From the IMG/VR virus record IMGVR_UViG_3300027734_000038: a DNA stretch of 64,000 nt; one strand, written 5' to 3'. Below the pieces are notes generated by a model. The model made no database searches. It saw only the letters and a program-made list of their open reading frames with translations, and was not told the DNA's origin. Shown piece by piece: positions 54,791 through 63,270 of the stretch (position 1 is its first letter; each line of letters opens with the position of its first letter). This stretch comes from a virus. The translations under genes were made by a program, and so were the position numbers.

Positions 54791-54921
54791 TGGAACAACA
54801 TATTTGTGTAGTTTGTGGCCATGTCCACGATGAACAGACAGAAGGTAAATGGAAAGATTTACCTGAAACTTTTGAATGTCCTGAATGTGGTGTAGGTAAA
54901 GAAGATTATTACATTTTATAA
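54790..54921 (+). CDS. rubredoxin, 43 aa (not in ORF track)
   Basis: MEQHICVVCGHVHDEQTEGKWKDLPETFECPECGVGKEDYYIL*: CxxC...W..LP..F.CPxCG. Confidence 0.9.
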   Translation: MEQHICVVCGHVHDEQTEGKWKDLPETFECPECGVGKEDYYIL

Positions 54922-55409
54922 TGAAACAAAAATTTATTGATGCTTATATGGATGTGGCAGAAAGATTTGCTAAGTTATCTTCTGCCAAACGATTGCAGGT
55001 GGGCGCCATTGTGGTAAAAGAAGATAGAATCATATCTATTGGATACAATGGTATGCCTGCAGGCTGGACAAATGAATGTGAAGAAAAAGAGTATTTTATT
55101 GGTAATATACCAGAAAAATATAGTACCGACCCATGGATATTCAAAGACGAAGATGGTGGTGTTGGACGCATTAAAACCAAAACGGAAGTGATTCATGCAG
55201 AAGCCAATGCAATCGTTAAGTTGGCCAAAAGTAATGATTCTGGAGATGGTTCTACCATGTTCCTAACCCATGCACCTTGTGTAGACTGTGCCAAACAGAT
55301 GTATGCCATGGGTGTCAAATCGGTATATTACCGCCATTCCTATCGAGATAATGACGGCTTGACATTCTTGGAGAAGTGTGATATAATGGTATCTAAGGTG
55401 GAGAAGTAA
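54921..55409 (+). CDS. cd: dCMP deaminase
   Basis: QVGAIVV, GYNG, HAEANA, PCVDC. Confidence 0.93.
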   Translation: MKQKFIDAYMDVAERFAKLSSAKRLQVGAIVVKEDRIISIGYNGMPAGWTNECEEKEYFIGNIPEKYSTDPWIFKDEDGGVGRIKTKTEVIHAEANAIVKLAKSNDSGDGSTMFLTHAPCVDCAKQMYAMGVKSVYYRHSYRDNDGLTFLEKCDIMVSKVEK

Positions 55410-55481: not shown

Positions 55482-55985
55482 ATGCAGCTAAGTATAGTTG
55501 GTTGTCCCGATAAAAAGCGATTTAGACCGTTCGTTAAAAGGGCTGCTCAGTTTTACGCAAAAGAATTAATATCCGAGAAAATGTTGGAAAACATATTTGT
55601 TAGGATAAAATTCAATAAGGATATTCCAGCCTACGGTTATGCCTCTGTTGAAGATTATAACGAAAGTGGTAAACCAAGAGAATTTGAAATTGAAATTCAT
55701 TCTGGTATTAGTGGTTATGATATATTAAAAACACTAGCTCATGAAATGGTTCATATTAAACAATATGTTTATGGAGAAACCAACGAAAAATTAACTCGTT
55801 GGAAAGGTGAAAGGGTTGATTCTGATACGATTGATTATTGGGTTCAACCTTGGGAAATAGAAGCACACGGATATGAAGCTGGATTATTTACCAAGTTTGC
55901 TATTAAAGAAAAACTTTGGAATGTATTTCAAGGTGTTCAAAATCCAGATTCAGATATTATTCCAGAACCACTAGGGTGGAAATAG
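55482..55985 (+). CDS. HExxH zinc metallopeptidase-like protein
   Basis: TLAHEMVHIKQ...Y...PWE.EA. Confidence 0.8.
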   Translation: MQLSIVGCPDKKRFRPFVKRAAQFYAKELISEKMLENIFVRIKFNKDIPAYGYASVEDYNESGKPREFEIEIHSGISGYDILKTLAHEMVHIKQYVYGETNEKLTRWKGERVDSDTIDYWVQPWEIEAHGYEAGLFTKFAIKEKLWNVFQGVQNPDSDIIPEPLGWK

Positions 55986-56007
55986 ACTATATAAGTGGCA
56001 AACATTC

Positions 56008-56037
56008 AACCCTAGTTTTTACTAGGGTTTTTTATTT
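56008..56037 (+). terminator. intrinsic terminator
   Basis: AACCCTAGT-TTTT-ACTAGGGTT plus T-run. Confidence 0.75.
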
Positions 56038-56059
56038 GTTGTTTTGGTACAACAGCCAC

Positions 56060-56087
56060 TTGACATATTGTATGGTTCGTGTATAAT
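56060..56087 (+). promoter_or_regulatory. sigma70 promoter of tRNA cluster
   Basis: TTGACA-N16-TATAAT. Confidence 0.8.
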
Positions 56088-56099
56088 GGTTCACTTAAT

Positions 56100-56174
56100 G
56101 CACCTATCGTCTATCGGTTAGGACACCGCCCTTTCACGGCGGGAAGAGGAGTTCGATTCTCCTTAGGTGTACCA
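56100..56174 (+). tRNA. tRNA-Glu(UUC)
   Basis: GCACCTA/TAGGTGT acceptor, CCGCC-CTTTCAC-GGCGG, GTTCGATTC, encoded CCA. Confidence 0.95.
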
Positions 56175-56175
56175 C

Positions 56176-56259
56176 GGAGCAGAAGAATCAATGGTGATTC
56201 AGCGGACTGTAAATCCGCCGCCTCTGGCACGCTTGGTTCGATCCCAAGATGCTCCACCA
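56176..56259 (+). tRNA. tRNA-Tyr(GUA)
   Basis: GCGGA-CTGTAAA-TCCGC, long variable arm, GGTTCGATCC, CCA. Confidence 0.93.
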
Positions 56260-56308
56260 AATTTAACTTTACAATAATTTTAAAAAACTTTACAATCGGG
56301 AGAGTATT

Positions 56309-56470
56309 ATGAAAAAGAAAACTACTCCTCAACCACGAAACTATCTTGTCAAATTGGCATTGTTTCGTAAAGCAGGAGTTCATCGTAAGAGTAACAAAGC
56401 AGTAAGGCGTTCCGAGAAGTCTAAAAAATTGTATCCTATTATGTGCATTAACTTAGGCTATTGTCTATAA
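56309..56470 (+). CDS. basic 53-aa micro-protein, ArfA-like architecture (not in ORF track)
   Basis: GGGAG RBS; MKKKTTPQPRNYLVKLALFRKAGVHRKSNKAVRRSEKSKK-LYPIMCINLGYCL*; stop lies inside a 15-bp hairpin. Confidence 0.6.
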   Translation: MKKKTTPQPRNYLVKLALFRKAGVHRKSNKAVRRSEKSKKLYPIMCINLGYCL

Positions 56471-56481
56471 TAGGATACAAT

Positions 56482-56556
56482 GTGAGAGTGGCAGAGTGGT
56501 CCAATGCAACGGCCTGCAAAGCCGTAAATCCGTGAGTTCGAATCTCACCTTTCACT
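56482..56556 (+). tRNA. tRNA-Cys(GCA), CCA not encoded
   Basis: GTGAGAG/CTTTCAC, ACGGC-CTGCAAA-GCCGT, U73, followed by TCA. Confidence 0.92.
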
Positions 56557-56579
56557 TCAAAATATACCACACAAAGTTG

Positions 56580-56608
56580 TTGACAAAGTAACATAAGTAG
56601 TGTATTAT
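56580..56608 (+). promoter_or_regulatory. sigma70 promoter
   Basis: TTGACA-N17-TATTAT. Confidence 0.75.
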
Positions 56609-56617
56609 GGTTTAAAT

Positions 56618-56684
56618 GCGGTGTGTGATAGCACGACAGAAGATACCCTCTTTTGTTATCTGAGCAAAGCAGACCACCGCTCCA
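56618..56684 (+). ncRNA. 67-nt non-canonical tRNA-like RNA (Gly-type acceptor)
   Basis: GCGGTG/CACCGC-T-CCA acceptor enclosing three hairpins; no TTC T-loop or D-loop GG. Confidence 0.7.
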
Positions 56685-56689
56685 AATTT

Positions 56690-56763
56690 GCGGGATTAGT
56701 TTAATGGTAAAATTAGAGTTTTCCAAACTCCAGTCATTGGTTCGATTCCAATATCCCGCTCCA
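56690..56763 (+). tRNA. tRNA-Gly(UCC)
   Basis: GCGGGAT/ATCCCGC, loop TTTCCAA, GGTTCGATTCC, U73, CCA. Confidence 0.94.
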
Positions 56764-56765
56764 TC

Positions 56766-56985
56766 ATTGAGAATGTGAAAGAAAGAATAAGCAATCCCAA
56801 CTGTTAGGGAAATCACTATCTCAGAAACCGTGTCCGCTATAAGGAGATTATCTAACAACGCAAAAGTTAGATTGAAAACGCAAAGCTGAGAGAACGACTG
56901 ACGAGTGGTAACGCATAAAGATAGGCGCCTATACTTTATGATAATTCCACCCATTAGTTCTTAAACACGAAACAGTATTCTCAAT
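56766..56985 (+). ncRNA. putative ~220-nt structured ncRNA
   Basis: Closing helix ATTGAGAATG/TATTCTCAAT, several internal helices, possible pseudoknot; no credible + strand ORF. Confidence 0.55.
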
Positions 56986-57021
56986 AATGGACTATATACT
57001 AATTTGATTGAAAGGTAAATT

Positions 57022-57279
57022 ATGGTTTTGCAACCTATGAAAGATAAGATTATTGTTTCACGAATTGCTGGAGAAAAACAAACTGAATTTGGTATTATTC
57101 TCAAATCATCAGAAGGTCCTGATAGAGCATTAGTTGAATCTATTGGTCCTAAAGTTGATGAAGTTTCTGTAGGTGATGAAGTTCTAATTAATTGGAATGG
57201 CGCAGTTAAAGTTTCTGGTAAAGAAATTGAAAAAGAATTGTATGTTGTTGCTATCGAACACGTAATATTAATTTTTTAA
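57022..57279 (+). CDS. groES: GroES-like co-chaperonin
   Basis: LQPMKDKIIV, T..GIIL, V.SIGP.V..V.VGD.VL. Confidence 0.85.
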   Translation: MVLQPMKDKIIVSRIAGEKQTEFGIILKSSEGPDRALVESIGPKVDEVSVGDEVLINWNGAVKVSGKEIEKELYVVAIEHVILIF

Positions 57280-57284
57280 TCTAT

Positions 57285-57358
57285 AGCGGGTTGGTGAAAA
57301 GGAATCACAGAGGACTCATAATCCTCAGTTCTTGGTTCGAGTCCAGGATCCGCAACCA
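57285..57358 (+). tRNA. tRNA-Met(CAU), initiator-like
   Basis: GAGGA-CTCATAA-TCCTC; A1:A72 mismatch; CCA. Confidence 0.88.
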
Positions 57359-57371
57359 CTAAGGAGATGTT

Positions 57372-57494
57372 ATGACTGAACAAAAGAAACCAGCAGTAAT
57401 CAAACCAATTCAAAAAGCACCACAACAACCAAAACCAAAACAAACATTTGTTCCTAAGATGACTGTGCAACGCAAAGCAGGTAGGGGAAGATGA
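57372..57494 (+). CDS. basic 40-aa micro-protein
   Basis: AAGGAG RBS; ends QRKAGRGR*. Confidence 0.55.
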   Translation: MTEQKKPAVIKPIQKAPQQPKPKQTFVPKMTVQRKAGRGR

Positions 57495-57604
57495 CACAAG
57501 AACATGATCCTGTTCAAGAACAGGACGACAAAAATTTGGATGACGAATTCAAACGAATTGAAGCCGAACAGAAACTAAAAGAAAAACAAAACCAATCGAG
57601 TTAG
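57491..57604 (+). CDS. acidic 37-aa micro-protein
   Basis: ATGA overlap; MTQEHDPVQEQDDKNLDDEFKRIEAEQKLKEKQNQSS*. Confidence 0.45.
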   Translation: MTQEHDPVQEQDDKNLDDEFKRIEAEQKLKEKQNQSS

Positions 57605-57687
57605 TGTTTTGCTAAAACTTCTAGCGTCATGATTATAAGACTGCCAATTAAACATATGGTAAAAATTATTTGAGGCAATTTATTCAT
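57601..57687 (-). CDS. 28-aa single-TM micro-protein
   Basis: MNKLPQIIFTICLIGSLIIMTLEVLAKH*. Confidence 0.45.
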   Translation of the reverse strand: MNKLPQIIFTICLIGSLIIMTLEVLAKH

Positions 57688-57705
57688 AGTTATCTCACTT
57701 TCAGT

Positions 57706-57795
57706 TTATTTAAATACTGCTCCCGATTCTACTACCATTAGTGTTAAACAGAGAATCAAAACGGCTACGAATATGAATGGTTGCACATCTTTCAT
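57706..57795 (-). CDS. 29-aa single-TM micro-protein
   Basis: MKDVQPFIFVAVLILCLTLMVVESGAVFK*; ATGA overlap with upstream minus-strand gene. Confidence 0.5.
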   Translation of the reverse strand: MKDVQPFIFVAVLILCLTLMVVESGAVFK

Positions 57796-58235
57796 ATTTT
57801 ATACAACTTAAAAAAATAAGTTATTAATGCTGAAGCAGTCATGCACCACCAAAAAACTTGAATTTGTTTTTGACGGTCTTTGTCTACTAATTTGTTTTCT
57901 TCTTCTCTTTCCTTTTGTAGTTTAGACTTTAATGCCTCCACTTCAGTCCAAGCATTTTTTCCATGTTTTCGGATAGTATCTTGTTTGAGTTTTTCTAACT
58001 CTCGTTCATGTGCCTTTTGCTGTTCGTATTTTTCCACAGCACGAACTTCCAACATAGTAGCCCGTCTTTCTTCTGCGAGCTTGGCTTGAACCCGTGCCTT
58101 ATGTTGTTGTTGAACGGCTCTTTCCATGTCGGCTTGTTGGTCACCGACCACGGCACCCAATTGTTTACCAACATTTTGAGCACTTTTTAAAGAGGAAACA
58201 GCGGTCTGTCCGCCAGCAGATATTGGATCAGGCAT
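57792..58235 (-). CDS. coiled-coil protein with C-terminal TM helix
   Basis: Long charged helix, then VFWWCMTASALITYFFKL; minus-strand late promoter upstream. Confidence 0.7.
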   Translation of the reverse strand: MPDPISAGGQTAVSSLKSAQNVGKQLGAVVGDQQADMERAVQQQHKARVQAKLAEERRATMLEVRAVEKYEQQKAHERELEKLKQDTIRKHGKNAWTEVEALKSKLQKEREEENKLVDKDRQKQIQVFWWCMTASALITYFFKLYKI

Positions 58236-58255: not shown

Positions 58256-58284
58256 TTGACAAAAAAGACAAAAAATAGTATACT
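58256..58284 (+). promoter_or_regulatory. sigma70 promoter for the polymerase operon
   Basis: TTGACA-N17-TATACT. Confidence 0.75.
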
Positions 58285-58640: not shown

Positions 58641-61178
58641 TTGGCAAATTTCTATACAAATGTTCAGAGTATTGGCGGCAATATTCTGTATCGTGGCATC
58701 AAAAATGGTCAACGAATAAAAGAGAAAATTGAGTATTCGCCTTCTCTTTATTTGCCATCCAAAAAGATTACAAACGTCACTTCACTCGATGGTGATTATC
58801 TCGACCAAAAAATCTTTGGCACAATTCAAAAGGCAAAAGATTTCATCAAACAATTTGATGGCGTTTCTGGTGCCTCCAAAATTTATGGTCAAACACGATT
58901 TGAGTATGCCTATATTGCAGATGAACATAGAGGTATGGTTGATTATGATTATGATAAAGTATCTGTCGCTGTAATCGATATTGAGGTAGGTTCTGAGAAT
59001 GGATTTCCTGACCCATATCAAGCAAATGAACCTATCACAGCAATTTGTATTCGCTTCACCAATAGTGAATCGTATGTGTTTGGTTGTGGTGAGTATGAAG
59101 TAAAAGGCAAAGAAATTTATTTCCGTTGTAAAGATGAATATAATCTCTGTAAATCATTTGTGAACTTTTGGAAAGACCACTATCCTGATATTATCACAGG
59201 ATGGAATACTAAGTTCTTTGATATACCATATCTTGTAAATCGTTTTAATAAAATTCTTGGTGAACCAGAAACTAAAAAACTTTCACCTTGGAATTATATT
59301 ACAGAACGCAAGGCCATCATCAATGGTCGTGAAATGACTTCTTATAGTCTTGTTGGTGTTGAATCGTTGGACTATATTGAACTATACAAATGGTATGCGC
59401 CAGGTGGTAAGTCACAAGAATCGTATCGTTTAGATAATATTGCTCAAGTAGAACTTGGTGAAGGTAAGATTGCATATGATGATTATGATAATCTACACTC
59501 ACTCTATCGTTTGAATTATCAACTGTTTATTGAGTATAACATTAAAGACGTTGAACTCATTATCAAACTGGAAGAAAAGTTAAAGTTACTTGAATTGGCA
59601 GTAACCTTGGCATATGATACCAAAACAAACTTTGAAGATGTCTTTGCACAAACTCGTATGTGGGATTCTTTGACATATGCTTATTTGTTTGAGAAAGATA
59701 TTATTGTTCCGCCAAGAGTTACCAAAGATAAAGATTCTGCATTTGAAGGTGCATATGTTAAAGTGCCACAAACTGGACTACATGATTGGGTTGCCTCATT
59801 TGACTTGAACTCTTTGTATCCACATTTGATGATGCAATATAATATCAGTCCTGAAACTTTGATTGAACCTGAGAACTACACAGATGAAATGCGTGAGGTT
59901 CTTTCTCAAGGTGTTTCTGTTGATAAGATGTTAAGTAAATCAATCAATACCACCAATCTTCAAGATGTAACTCTTACTCCAAATGGTCAATTCTTCCGTA
60001 CCGACATTCAAGGTTTCTTGCCTAAGATGATGGAAGAAATGTATACAGATAGAAGTAAGTTCAAACAGTTGATGTTAAAAGCAAAACAAGAATATGAAAA
60101 TGAAAAAGATTCTAACAAACTTTATGAAATTGAAAAGCGAATTGCTAAGTATAACAACATACAATTGGCCAAGAAAGTATCTCTTAACTCTGCCTATGGT
60201 GCTTTGGGTTCTCAGTATTTTCGTTTTTATGACCTACGCATGGCCTTGGGTGTTACAACAGCAGGCCAGTTATCCATAAGATGGATTGAAAACAAAATTA
60301 ATGCTTGGATGAATAAGATTCTTGGTACAGATGATAAAGACTATGTGATTGCATCTGATACCGATTCAATCTATCTCCGTATGGGAGAATTGGTTAATAA
60401 GTTCATTAAAGATACCTCAGATAAACAAAAAGTAATTTCTCTCATGGATAAAATCTGTGAAGAAAAGATACAACCATATATCGATAAGTCTTATGATGAA
60501 TTGGCTGAATATGTTCATGCGTATGAACAAAAGATGCAGATGAAGCGTGAAGGCCTTTCTGATAAAGGTATTTGGACTGCCAAGAAACGATATATTCTCA
60601 ATGTGTATAACAATGAGGGTGTTCAATACAATGAACCACAAATGAAGGTGATGGGTTTGGAAATGATTAAATCTTCCACACCATCCGCCATTCGTGAAAA
60701 AATGAAAGAGGCAATTCAGTTAATGGTGAATGGAACTCAAGATGATATTCATACCTTTATTGCAGATTTTAGAAAAGAGTTTAAGAAGTTGCCTGTGGAA
60801 GAAATTTCTTTTCCCCGTGGTCTCAATGGCCTAAATACCTATTCTGATGCGGTTAACCTTTATAAAAAAGGTACGCCAATTCATGTTAAAGGTGCAATTA
60901 TCTATAACAACAATCTAAAACGATTGGATCTCACCAAAAAATATCCACTCATTCAAGAAGGTGAAAAGGTTAAGTTTACTTACCTTAAAATGCCAAATCC
61001 ATTTAAAGATACAGTTATCTCGTATCCATCTCGTTTACCAAAAGAGTTTGAACTGCAACAATATATCGACTATGATATGCAGTTCGATAAGGCATTCTTG
61101 GAACCAATCAAAGTTATTCTTGATTGTATGAAGTGGTCAACAGAAAAAACAAGTTCAATAGAGGATTTCTTCTCATGA
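58641..61178 (+). CDS. gp43: family B DNA polymerase (TTG start)
   Basis: DIE exonuclease, SFDLNSLYP, KVSLNSAYG, ASDTDS, KKRY. Confidence 0.98.
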   Translation: MANFYTNVQSIGGNILYRGIKNGQRIKEKIEYSPSLYLPSKKITNVTSLDGDYLDQKIFGTIQKAKDFIKQFDGVSGASKIYGQTRFEYAYIADEHRGMVDYDYDKVSVAVIDIEVGSENGFPDPYQANEPITAICIRFTNSESYVFGCGEYEVKGKEIYFRCKDEYNLCKSFVNFWKDHYPDIITGWNTKFFDIPYLVNRFNKILGEPETKKLSPWNYITERKAIINGREMTSYSLVGVESLDYIELYKWYAPGGKSQESYRLDNIAQVELGEGKIAYDDYDNLHSLYRLNYQLFIEYNIKDVELIIKLEEKLKLLELAVTLAYDTKTNFEDVFAQTRMWDSLTYAYLFEKDIIVPPRVTKDKDSAFEGAYVKVPQTGLHDWVASFDLNSLYPHLMMQYNISPETLIEPENYTDEMREVLSQGVSVDKMLSKSINTTNLQDVTLTPNGQFFRTDIQGFLPKMMEEMYTDRSKFKQLMLKAKQEYENEKDSNKLYEIEKRIAKYNNIQLAKKVSLNSAYGALGSQYFRFYDLRMALGVTTAGQLSIRWIENKINAWMNKILGTDDKDYVIASDTDSIYLRMGELVNKFIKDTSDKQKVISLMDKICEEKIQPYIDKSYDELAEYVHAYEQKMQMKREGLSDKGIWTAKKRYILNVYNNEGVQYNEPQMKVMGLEMIKSSTPSAIREKMKEAIQLMVNGTQDDIHTFIADFRKEFKKLPVEEISFPRGLNGLNTYSDAVNLYKKGTPIHVKGAIIYNNNLKRLDLTKKYPLIQEGEKVKFTYLKMPNPFKDTVISYPSRLPKEFELQQYIDYDMQFDKAFLEPIKVILDCMKWSTEKTSSIEDFFS

Positions 61179-62187: not shown

Positions 62188-63270
62188 ATGAGTATACTTG
62201 ACAAAATTAAAAAGAATAGTAGTATTAAAGAATCAGCTATTCTTTCCAAATCAAAATTCTTCACACAGAAGGATATGATTCCAACCTCGGTGCCTATTAT
62301 CAATGTGGCACTTTCAGGTAAATTAGATGGTGGTTTAACACCAGGTCTTACAATGTGGGCAGGTCCATCCAAACATTTTAAGACTGCGTTTTCGTTATTG
62401 ATGGCCAAATCTTACTTGGACAAATATCCCAATGCAGCACTTTTATTCTATGATTCGGAGTTTGGTACTCCGCAATCTTACTTTGATTCCTTTGGTATTG
62501 ATACTGAGCGTGTTCTTCATACACCACTTACTGACATAGAACAACTCAAGTTCGATATCATGCAACAACTTACGAACCTTGATAGGGACGACAAATTAAT
62601 TATCATCATTGATTCTATTGGTAACTTGGCATCTAAGAAAGAAGTTGACGATGCACTTGAAGGCAAATCTGTTGCAGATATGTCCAGAGCAAAACAAGTT
62701 AAATCATTATTCAGAATGGTAACACCTCATTTGACGATGAAAGATATTCCAATGGTTGTAGTCAACCATACTTACAAAGAAATTGGAATGTTCCCTAAAG
62801 ATATCGTGGGTGGTGGCACAGGTTCTTATTATTCAGCCGATAATATTTTCATTCTTGGTCGCCAACAAGAAAAAGAAGGCACAGAGGTTGTAGGTTATAA
62901 CTTTATTATTAATGTGGAAAAATCTCGATATGTTAAAGAAAAATCTAAAATTCCTGTTTCTGTATCTTTTGATGGTGGTATTAGCCGTTGGTCAGGCTTA
63001 CTTGATATCGCACTTGATTCCGGCCTCGTTATCAAACCATCTAATGGTTGGTATTCAAGGGTAGATGTAACCACCGGTGAAGTAGAAGATAAAAAATGGA
63101 GAATTAAAGATACAGATACCAAAGATTTCTGGATGCCACTAATTACAAGTGAAAAGTTCCAAAATTATGTTAAAGACAAATACCAAATTGCTACTGGTGC
63201 CATCATGCAAGGCGGTGAAGAAGAATTATTTGATGAGGTTGTAACCATGAATGGTGCTGAAAATGACTGA
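62188..63270 (+). CDS. uvsX: RecA-like recombinase UvsX
   Basis: AGPSKHFKT, FYDSEFG, IDSIGNLASKKE, GGGTG.YYSA. Confidence 0.97.
   Translation: MSILDKIKKNSSIKESAILSKSKFFTQKDMIPTSVPIINVALSGKLDGGLTPGLTMWAGPSKHFKTAFSLLMAKSYLDKYPNAALLFYDSEFGTPQSYFDSFGIDTERVLHTPLTDIEQLKFDIMQQLTNLDRDDKLIIIIDSIGNLASKKEVDDALEGKSVADMSRAKQVKSLFRMVTPHLTMKDIPMVVVNHTYKEIGMFPKDIVGGGTGSYYSADNIFILGRQQEKEGTEVVGYNFIINVEKSRYVKEKSKIPVSVSFDGGISRWSGLLDIALDSGLVIKPSNGWYSRVDVTTGEVEDKKWRIKDTDTKDFWMPLITSEKFQNYVKDKYQIATGAIMQGGEEELFDEVVTMNGAEND

Follow-up and report, generated by a model that had tools for sequence, protein, structure and literature searches.

A covarying, structured RNA family from tRNA arrays of uncultivated T4-like phages

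Introduction

Phage tRNA clusters with extra stable RNAs of unexplained role, such as species 1 and species 2 of T4, have been known for about 50 years. The locus analysed here raises the question of what occupies the stretch between a tRNA gene and a co-chaperonin gene in the tRNA array of IMG/VR virus record IMGVR_UViG_3300027734_000038, of which 64,000 nucleotides, called the window throughout, were examined as a whole. A preliminary description made from the letters of the window alone had proposed a multi-helix RNA of about 225 nt directly behind tRNA-Gly. We followed this proposal through homologue search, covariation analysis and comparison with known RNAs, and find that window 56762-56989 (+) is a single-copy gene of an uncatalogued structured RNA family, and that the family is found within tRNA arrays of uncultivated T4-like phages.

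Genomic setting of the element

Judged by its gene content, the source region of the window is a T4-like phage, and the features that bear on the locus are the following.

54921-55409: dCMP deaminase gene
56100-57358 (+): tRNA array with Glu, Tyr, Cys, Gly and Met
56580-56608 (+): promoter-like site of sigma-70 type, TTGACA, 17 nt, TATTAT (consensus scan, 11 of 12 matches)
56690-56763 (+): tRNA-Gly (TCC) with encoded CCA (called by ARAGORN; Rfam tRNA model, 63.3 bits)
57022-57279: Cpn10/gp31-like co-chaperonin gene (cpn10)
58641-61178: family B DNA polymerase gene
62188-63270: UvsX gene

The covariance model that we built for the family, R1, places a structured non-coding element at 56761-56990 (+) with 170.8 bits, between tRNA-Gly, whose CCA ends at 56763, and cpn10; the RNA in the window is about 220 nt long. 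The single-sequence fold of this 230-nt stretch beats all 200 of 200 dinucleotide shuffles (z = -3.85), and this, taken with the R1 placement and the 60 relatives described below, bears out the structured RNA that had been proposed here. Folding energy alone cannot settle the strand, as the opposite strand folds well too. The strand is settled by the scores, members scoring 125-196 bits on the tRNA strand and the reverse matches, obtained for few members, at most 24 bits, and by the many G-U pairs, which together put the RNA on the + strand. Since no open reading frame spans the element in any member on either strand, and the member lengths are distributed over all three phases, we take the RNA to be non-coding.

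The promoter-like site at 56580-56608 lies upstream of a mini tRNA-like RNA, of tRNA-Gly and of the element, and no terminator-like site was found between it and cpn10. Also, four near-perfect sigma-70 promoter-like sites with 11-12 of 12 matches (55359-55387, 56060-56087, 56580-56608 and 58256-58284, all +) fall in the 3 kb round the tRNA array, which suggests that the array region may have several start points for the host polymerase.

Secondary structure and its support

Plain MAFFT alignment with RNAalifold gave P1 and P2 only, as the middle of the molecule was misaligned, and an alignment by covariance model was used instead. Diverged members were folded as single sequences, unconstrained or lightly constrained, and these folds converge on one layout; R1 was built from an alignment with the layout common to them, and all members were realigned to R1. 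The outcome supports a four-way junction formed by P1, P2, P3 (carrying the hairpins P4 and P5) and a variable arm P6, with these parts in the window.

56762-56766 (+): 5′ strand of the P1 extension, CAUCA, paired with 56985-56989
56767-56774 (+): 5′ strand of P1, UUGAGAAU, paired with 56977-56984
56775-56794 (+): junction J1/2, GUGnnnGAAAGAnUAAGCAA, which holds G56781 and G56791-C56792
56795-56810 (+): P2 hairpin, UCCC(AACUGUUA)GGGA, 56795-56798 paired with 56807-56810
56811-56818 (+): junction J2/3, AAUCACUA, which holds C56816
56819-56891 (+): P3 domain, P3 being 56819-56824 paired with 56886-56891 and enclosing P4 and P5
56833-56835 with 56843-56845 (+): P4 hairpin, inside P3
56850-56856 with 56866-56872 (+): P5 hairpin, loop 56857-56865, inside P3
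56892-56960 (+): variable arm P6, its base GAAC 56892-56895 paired with GUUC 56957-56960
56961-56976 (+): junction J6/1, UUAAACACnnAACAGU, in which AACAGU 56971-56976 is the 3′ strand of the pseudoknot
56977-56984 and 56985-56989 (+): 3′ strand of P1, AUUCUCAA, and extension UAAUG

Standard pairs fill 95.4% of the cells in the 60-sequence alignment, a percentage inflated by the fitting of the alignment to the model structure, as against 82.1% with shuffled 3′ partners and 37-54% with a shift of the partners by 1-3 columns. Of the 45 pairs, 29 show compensatory (two-sided) change among the 60 sequences. The pair-type numbers and the agreement of the independent folds do not depend on model fitting. 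The closing helix of the preliminary description is P1, which covaries together with the extension that lengthens it; P1 itself is nearly invariant, and its rare variants are compensatory (UUAAGAUU/AAUCUUAA, UUGAGAUU/GAUCUCAA and UUGAGAAC/GUUCUCAA). The TCCC/GGGA, TCTCAG/CTGAGA and ATCTAAC/GTTAGAT helices named there reappear as P2, P3 and P5, each covarying across the 60 homologues. The P2 loop AACUGUUA is invariant and the P2 closing pair is CG in 31 cases and UA in 28, while compensatory change is found in 5 of 6 P3 pairs and in all 5 modelled P5 pairs, with up to six pair types per position in P5. Independent single-sequence folds give the same layout for the P3 domain. All 4 basal pairs of P6 covary; the outer part of the arm is lineage-specific, and the GTGG/CCAC helix described round CATAAAG.../...CTTTATG is real as the window's version of it (GUGG/CCAC with CAUAAAG/CUUUAUG). 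Most of the 155-226 nt size range of the family is due to the length of this arm. Around the junction lie about 55 invariant nucleotides, and two candidate additional pairings, GUG:CAC and UAAG:CUUA, are made up wholly of invariant bases.

As a separate observation, the P6 arm of one sub-lineage (L060, L057, L070, L088, L096, L107 and relatives) contains GACCUUAAACGUC, a repeat of the conserved J6/1 motif UCUUAAACAC, which may be an internal duplication or a mimic of that motif.

Long-range contacts

Tertiary contacts were sought by a scan for covarying columns outside the helices and by direct counts, and three were obtained. The first is a pseudoknot between ACUGUU of loop 2 (56800-56805) and AACAGU of J6/1 (56971-56976), with all 360 of its cells paired; the 45:271 pair is UA in 55 sequences, CG in 3 and UG in 2, a compensatory change with wobble intermediates, and two other positions vary to wobble only. 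The second joins G56781 of J1/2 to C56816 of J2/3 (columns 21:60; GC 46, AU 11, GU 1), with the AU form present in several sub-lineages. In the third, G56791-C56792 of J1/2 pair with G56860-C56861 of loop 5, where column 31:110 is GC in 60 of 60 and column 32:109 is CG in 56 and GC in 4; it is the weaker evidence, as the change from C:G to G:C occurs in one lineage of four sequences and is a single event. A different pseudoknot, CGTGT (56829) with ACACG (56965), had been thought possible, and it did not hold up, its positions being paired in 1 to 28 of 54 homologues. A likeness of loop 2 to the anticodon loop of tRNA-Asn was also considered and set aside, the loop 2 pseudoknot being the simpler explanation.

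Relatives, copy number and distribution

Patterns taken from the conserved ends and the hairpin-2 region were run over IMG/VR and JGI metagenome contigs, and gave 60 distinct relatives of 155-226 nt from viral and metagenome contigs; five pattern matches (L013, L016, L082, L105 and L109) were dropped as chance. All 54 variants examined for context lie in tRNA arrays and on the tRNA strand. R1 finds exactly one copy in each of the eleven viral contigs that carry the element (the window and ten from IMG/VR), and the latter include complete genomes of 235.8 and 161.8 kb with one copy each; one copy per contig fits a gene and not a repeat. The conserved neighbour genes are those for cpn10, rubrerythrin, dCMP deaminase, DNA polymerase and a WYL_2 protein, and no candidate emerged from them when a conserved protein partner was sought. 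At 15 loci the element stands directly upstream of cpn10, in its 5′ leader.

The neighbouring cpn10 led to five related viral contigs, three of which have the element at 90-94% identity. In L003 the ends are as in the window and the interior differs. In L004 the CCA of tRNA-Gly is followed directly by CAACGACTACATAC and cpn10, without the element (L004:2893-3010 as compared to L003:2528-3010 and window 56690-57030), and an R1 search of the whole 71.6-kb L004 contig found no copy anywhere. As the cpn10 of this relative is 89% identical and the element is missing both from the same site and across the 71.6 kb, the element may be dispensable.

The smallest natural member has 155 nt (L079, the same element as L075:3315-3469). 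It lies 3 nt behind tRNA-Leu and 4 nt ahead of tRNA-Met, in an array of about 20 tRNAs.

Outside these contigs the searches were negative. A blastn search of 50,697 phage records with this region matched the tRNA alone, and the core pattern gave a single match in 185,579 prokaryote genomes, a chance one in coding DNA. The closest cultured phages by UvsX (64-55% identity) are Phage C48C1, Stenotrophomonas DLP6, Xanthomonas BUDD, Caulobacter Cr30 and Acidovorax ACP17, and R1 found no copy in these five; a match of 12.7 bits in Cr30 (E = 0.037) was taken as noise.

The terminal helix and the CCA of the upstream tRNA

P1 continues outwards beyond the invariant part. In 54 homologues the pairing of -1 to -5 with +1 to +5 is kept at 89-100%, and compensatory changes are seen at -1 (AU/GC), -2 (UA/AU) and -5 (CG/UA); pairing is about 65-75% at -6 to -8 and at background level farther out. 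Two of these positions hardly vary, A(-4), which is A56763, being present in 53 of 54 and U(-3), which is U56764, in 52 of 54. P1 and its extension thus make a terminal helix of 13 bp that takes in C56762 and A56763 of the tRNA-Gly CCA.

This overlap with the tRNA end is kept in register. Of the 27 cases with a tRNA no more than 20 nt upstream, 19 have a spacing of exactly 3 nt before P1, and the tRNAs concerned are of five identities (Gly, Asn, Thr, Leu and Tyr). The background is 2 spacers of 3 nt in 147 tRNA-tRNA gaps; since many junctions are inherited the independent count is nearer 5 of 11 junction types, which is still far above the background. The 3-nt register makes C75 and A76 of the tRNA the helix bases -5 and -4, and the CCA is encoded by 238 of the 243 array tRNAs (98%). 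The next tRNA downstream stands at a variable distance of 4 to 20 nt. A candidate cut site after CCA would stand at the outer end of a regular helix, separated from the junction core by 11-12 bp.

Comparison with known RNAs

On cmscan of the whole window against Rfam 15 at gathering score only tRNAs were found, and with E up to 10 nothing overlaps the element in region 55500-58000 of the window or in 11 further member loci, so that no known family covers the element in these 12 members. This agrees with the preliminary description, which had recognised no hallmarks of tmRNA, RNase P, SRP or group I. The models for tmRNA, 6S, SRP, RNase P RNA, group I/II introns and the known self-cleavers in Rfam 15 gave no match. 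A tRNA identity was rejected, as neither ARAGORN nor Rfam RF00005 calls the element and it has no T-loop. Four likenesses seen by eye were discarded for want of a matching architecture or model: the hammerhead CUGANGA...GAAA, the hairpin-ribozyme AAACAG/CUGUU helix with AGAA/AAACA loops, RNase P CR-I/CR-V with an AAG:CUU 'P4', and the L11-binding region of 23S rRNA.

The nearest comparison is with T4 species 1 (rnaC, 139 nt) and species 2 (rnaD, 119 nt), the function of which is unknown (PMC3014915, PMC9697503). Like the element they are structured RNAs other than tRNA inside a T4-type tRNA cluster, on the tRNA strand and abutting tRNAs. However, rnaC ends in a T-arm-like hairpin and rnaD in CCA, whereas the 3′ end of the element has neither, and the element is larger, with a four-way junction and three long-range contacts. 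R1 gave no match at E up to 1 to the T4 tRNA region with rnaC and rnaD (L055, T4 69500-74500), and by inspection no motifs are shared. In kind the element is closest to T4 species 1 and 2, but without homology to them.

Theta ribozymes have a minimal double pseudoknot of HDV type and cleave themselves at the 5′ end. The HDV-like theta ribozymes of gut phages resemble the element in being phage RNAs directly after a tRNA gene, but the element has 155-226 nt and a four-way junction, and its upstream bases are paired into the terminal helix; the HDV-family models gave no match in 12 members at E up to 10. GOLLD and ROOL are complex-folded phage or prophage RNAs of unknown function, have about 500-800 nt and are often near tRNA genes. 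They form homo-oligomeric cages (cryo-EM, bioRxiv 10.1101/2024.12.08.627333). The complex fold is a likeness, while the element has about 200 nt as against about 500 nt or more, and the GOLLD and ROOL models of Rfam do not match it. Lastly, the DNAVirus_N catalogue of structured-RNA candidates, drawn from the same data source, IMG/VR, has entries of 29-151 nt, some of them tRNA-like or tRNA-adjacent (PMC10690425); every member of our family is longer, and a fragment of the RNA may be listed there. The suggestion of a new non-coding RNA class is thus upheld for a well-populated, covarying family that is unmatched by Rfam 15, by T4 rnaC/rnaD and by the cultured phages.

Other features of the array

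A mini tRNA-like RNA of about 69 nt lies at window 56618-56686 (+), between the promoter-like site at 56580-56608 and tRNA-Gly. It has an acceptor-like stem of 6-7 bp ending in UCCA, a D-like hairpin of 3 bp that covaries (GUG..CAC with GUA..UAC), a covarying arm of 6-9 bp that has GAUACCCUC as its invariant loop, and a third, short hairpin; neither ARAGORN nor the Rfam tRNA model calls it. It is 74-97% identical in about 60 loci, the element-less L004 included, and no intermolecular covariation was found between J2/3 of the element and the co-resident mini-RNA. A module of about 170 nt is found between tRNA-Gly (or tRNA-Asn) and the element in L003 (2603-2773), L044, L047, L049 and L050, with a possible small ORF behind AGAGG and a conserved end hairpin GACACAAGGYCTTTTGTTTAGGGACAGAAGGCA; it is absent from the window. 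Also, a very basic ORF of 53 codons without a Pfam match lies at window 56309-56470 (+), between tRNA-Tyr and tRNA-Cys, and a promoter-like site at 56268-56296 precedes it.

Discussion

We give about an even chance to the reading that the element is a stable RNA cut from a tRNA precursor and that its folded core works in trans, as the RNA partner (decoy or cofactor) in a specific complex with protein. The element would be co-transcribed with the tRNAs, the transcript starting at the 56580-56608 site and running through the tRNA-like mini-RNA and tRNA-Gly and on into cpn10. The 13-bp terminal helix, which includes the CA of the upstream CCA, would mark the ends of the RNA. As there is no single-stranded spacer between the element and the upstream tRNA, an endonuclease cut would be needed, and host tRNA- or dsRNA-processing endonucleases of RNase P or RNase III type could make it. 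Conservation at the A(-4)/U(-3) step, together with the constant 3-nt spacing, argues for a 5′ cut after A(-4), that is, exactly after CCA, and the 3′ end may come from RNase P cleavage of the next tRNA or from an equivalent cut. RNase P and RNase III leave a 3′-OH, while small self-cleaving ribozymes leave a 2′,3′-cyclic phosphate; the former would give a ready tRNA end. Also, a cut 11-12 bp from the core, which is the length of the acceptor/T-stem stack of a tRNA, would agree well with an enzyme that has a helical ruler and poorly with self-cleavage. Against these enzymes it may be said that the pairing of -4 to -6 with +4 to +6 would hinder RNase P at the proposed cut, and that the terminal helix is short for a classical RNase III site.

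Once excised, the RNA would be closed by a helix of at least 11 bp, from which resistance to exonucleases is expected, and it would persist as a globular RNA. Its four-way junction P1/P2/P3/P6 would be locked by the pseudoknot of loop 2 with J6/1, by G56781-C56816 and by the contact of J1/2 with loop 5. With about 55 invariant nucleotides lining the junction, we infer action in trans by the folded core and not by repeated short motifs, and an invariant junction with three tertiary locks points to action through a specific three-dimensional surface. Catalysis or the binding of a small molecule would be as compatible with the invariant pseudoknotted core as protein binding is.

The element could be a ribozyme, either self-cleaving to help the adjoining tRNA mature or acting in trans on tRNA precursors, and the compact pseudoknotted core with its invariant nucleotides, the fixed register to the upstream CCA and the precedent of phage tRNA-adjacent ribozymes (PMC10879173) all speak for it. 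We nevertheless regard it as unlikely. The Rfam 15 models for hammerhead, hairpin, HDV, twister, twister-sister, pistol, hatchet, glmS, VS, RNase P and group I/II are unmatched in 12 members at E up to 10. The site constrained by the register, at the outer end of a regular helix and 11 bp away from the core, has poor geometry for self-cleavage, an argument that leaves room for catalysis elsewhere in the molecule, and a 2′,3′-cyclic phosphate would block a CCA end that is already encoded. The CCA is encoded in only 4.5% of the tRNAs associated with theta ribozymes (PMC10879173) as against the 98% found here. One copy per genome next to changing tRNAs also argues against a dedicated processing device.

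No more probable is a cis-acting module for processing or stability of the polycistronic tRNA/mRNA transcript. The sole task of its long terminal helix would be to guide an endonuclease or to keep exonucleases out, and the RNA set free would have no function itself. Such a module would account for the covarying P1 extension that takes in the tRNA CA, for the fixed 3-nt register and for the 15 loci at which the element is in the cpn10 leader, directly upstream of the gene. But a processing stem needs no four-way junction, no three covarying or invariant tertiary contacts and no set of some 55 invariant bases; the element is present at one of about 10-20 tRNAs per array, its neighbour varies in identity, and downstream of many copies there is a tRNA and not cpn10.

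Quite improbable is that the invariant pseudoknotted core is catalytic or the RNA subunit of an enzyme. The element would then represent a new ribozyme or RNP class that docks on its own tRNA-like helix of 12-13 bp, or on tRNA precursors, and makes ready CCA 3′ ends; the exact 3-nt register would in that case result from a helical ruler.

It is very unlikely that the element is a selfish or mobile cassette, MITE-like or otherwise, or another element at DNA level, with the 13-bp terminal inverted repeats as sites of recombination or transposition. The conserved terminal repeats, the difference in presence between the close relatives L004 and L003 and the different tRNAs adjoined in different phages would be expected of one, but there is exactly one copy in each of the eleven contigs, no target-site duplication is visible at the empty site of L004, no transposase or endonuclease gene is consistently nearby, the interior helices covary, and the G-U pairs with the large difference in strand score show selection on the + strand RNA. 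The protein sponge of the preliminary description, which would titrate a regulator through repeated AACGCA loop motifs, is hardly credible: the three copies are indeed in the window, in or near loops and junctions, and in its two closest relatives, but a set of three is confined to these 3 of 54 members, the majority carrying a single copy or none, of the window copies one is in a helix strand and another in the variable arm, and what is conserved instead is the pseudoknotted junction core. By the same count the element does not belong with CsrB-like sponge RNAs, the repeated loop motif not being family-wide.

The reading that we favour remains that of a stable, trans-acting RNA excised from the tRNA precursor. 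We rate the element as a new RNA family among the extra stable RNAs of phage tRNA clusters, and a much better-constrained example of a tRNA-cluster RNA, with 60 variants, a four-way junction supported by covariation and three long-range contacts. The minimal natural version of 155 nt and the sharp CCA register lead to concrete constructs, and the family model could enter RNA catalogues, by which the gene would be annotated in viral metagenomes. If the core is catalytic or directed at tRNA, the family would be relevant to the ways in which large phages keep themselves supplied with tRNA.
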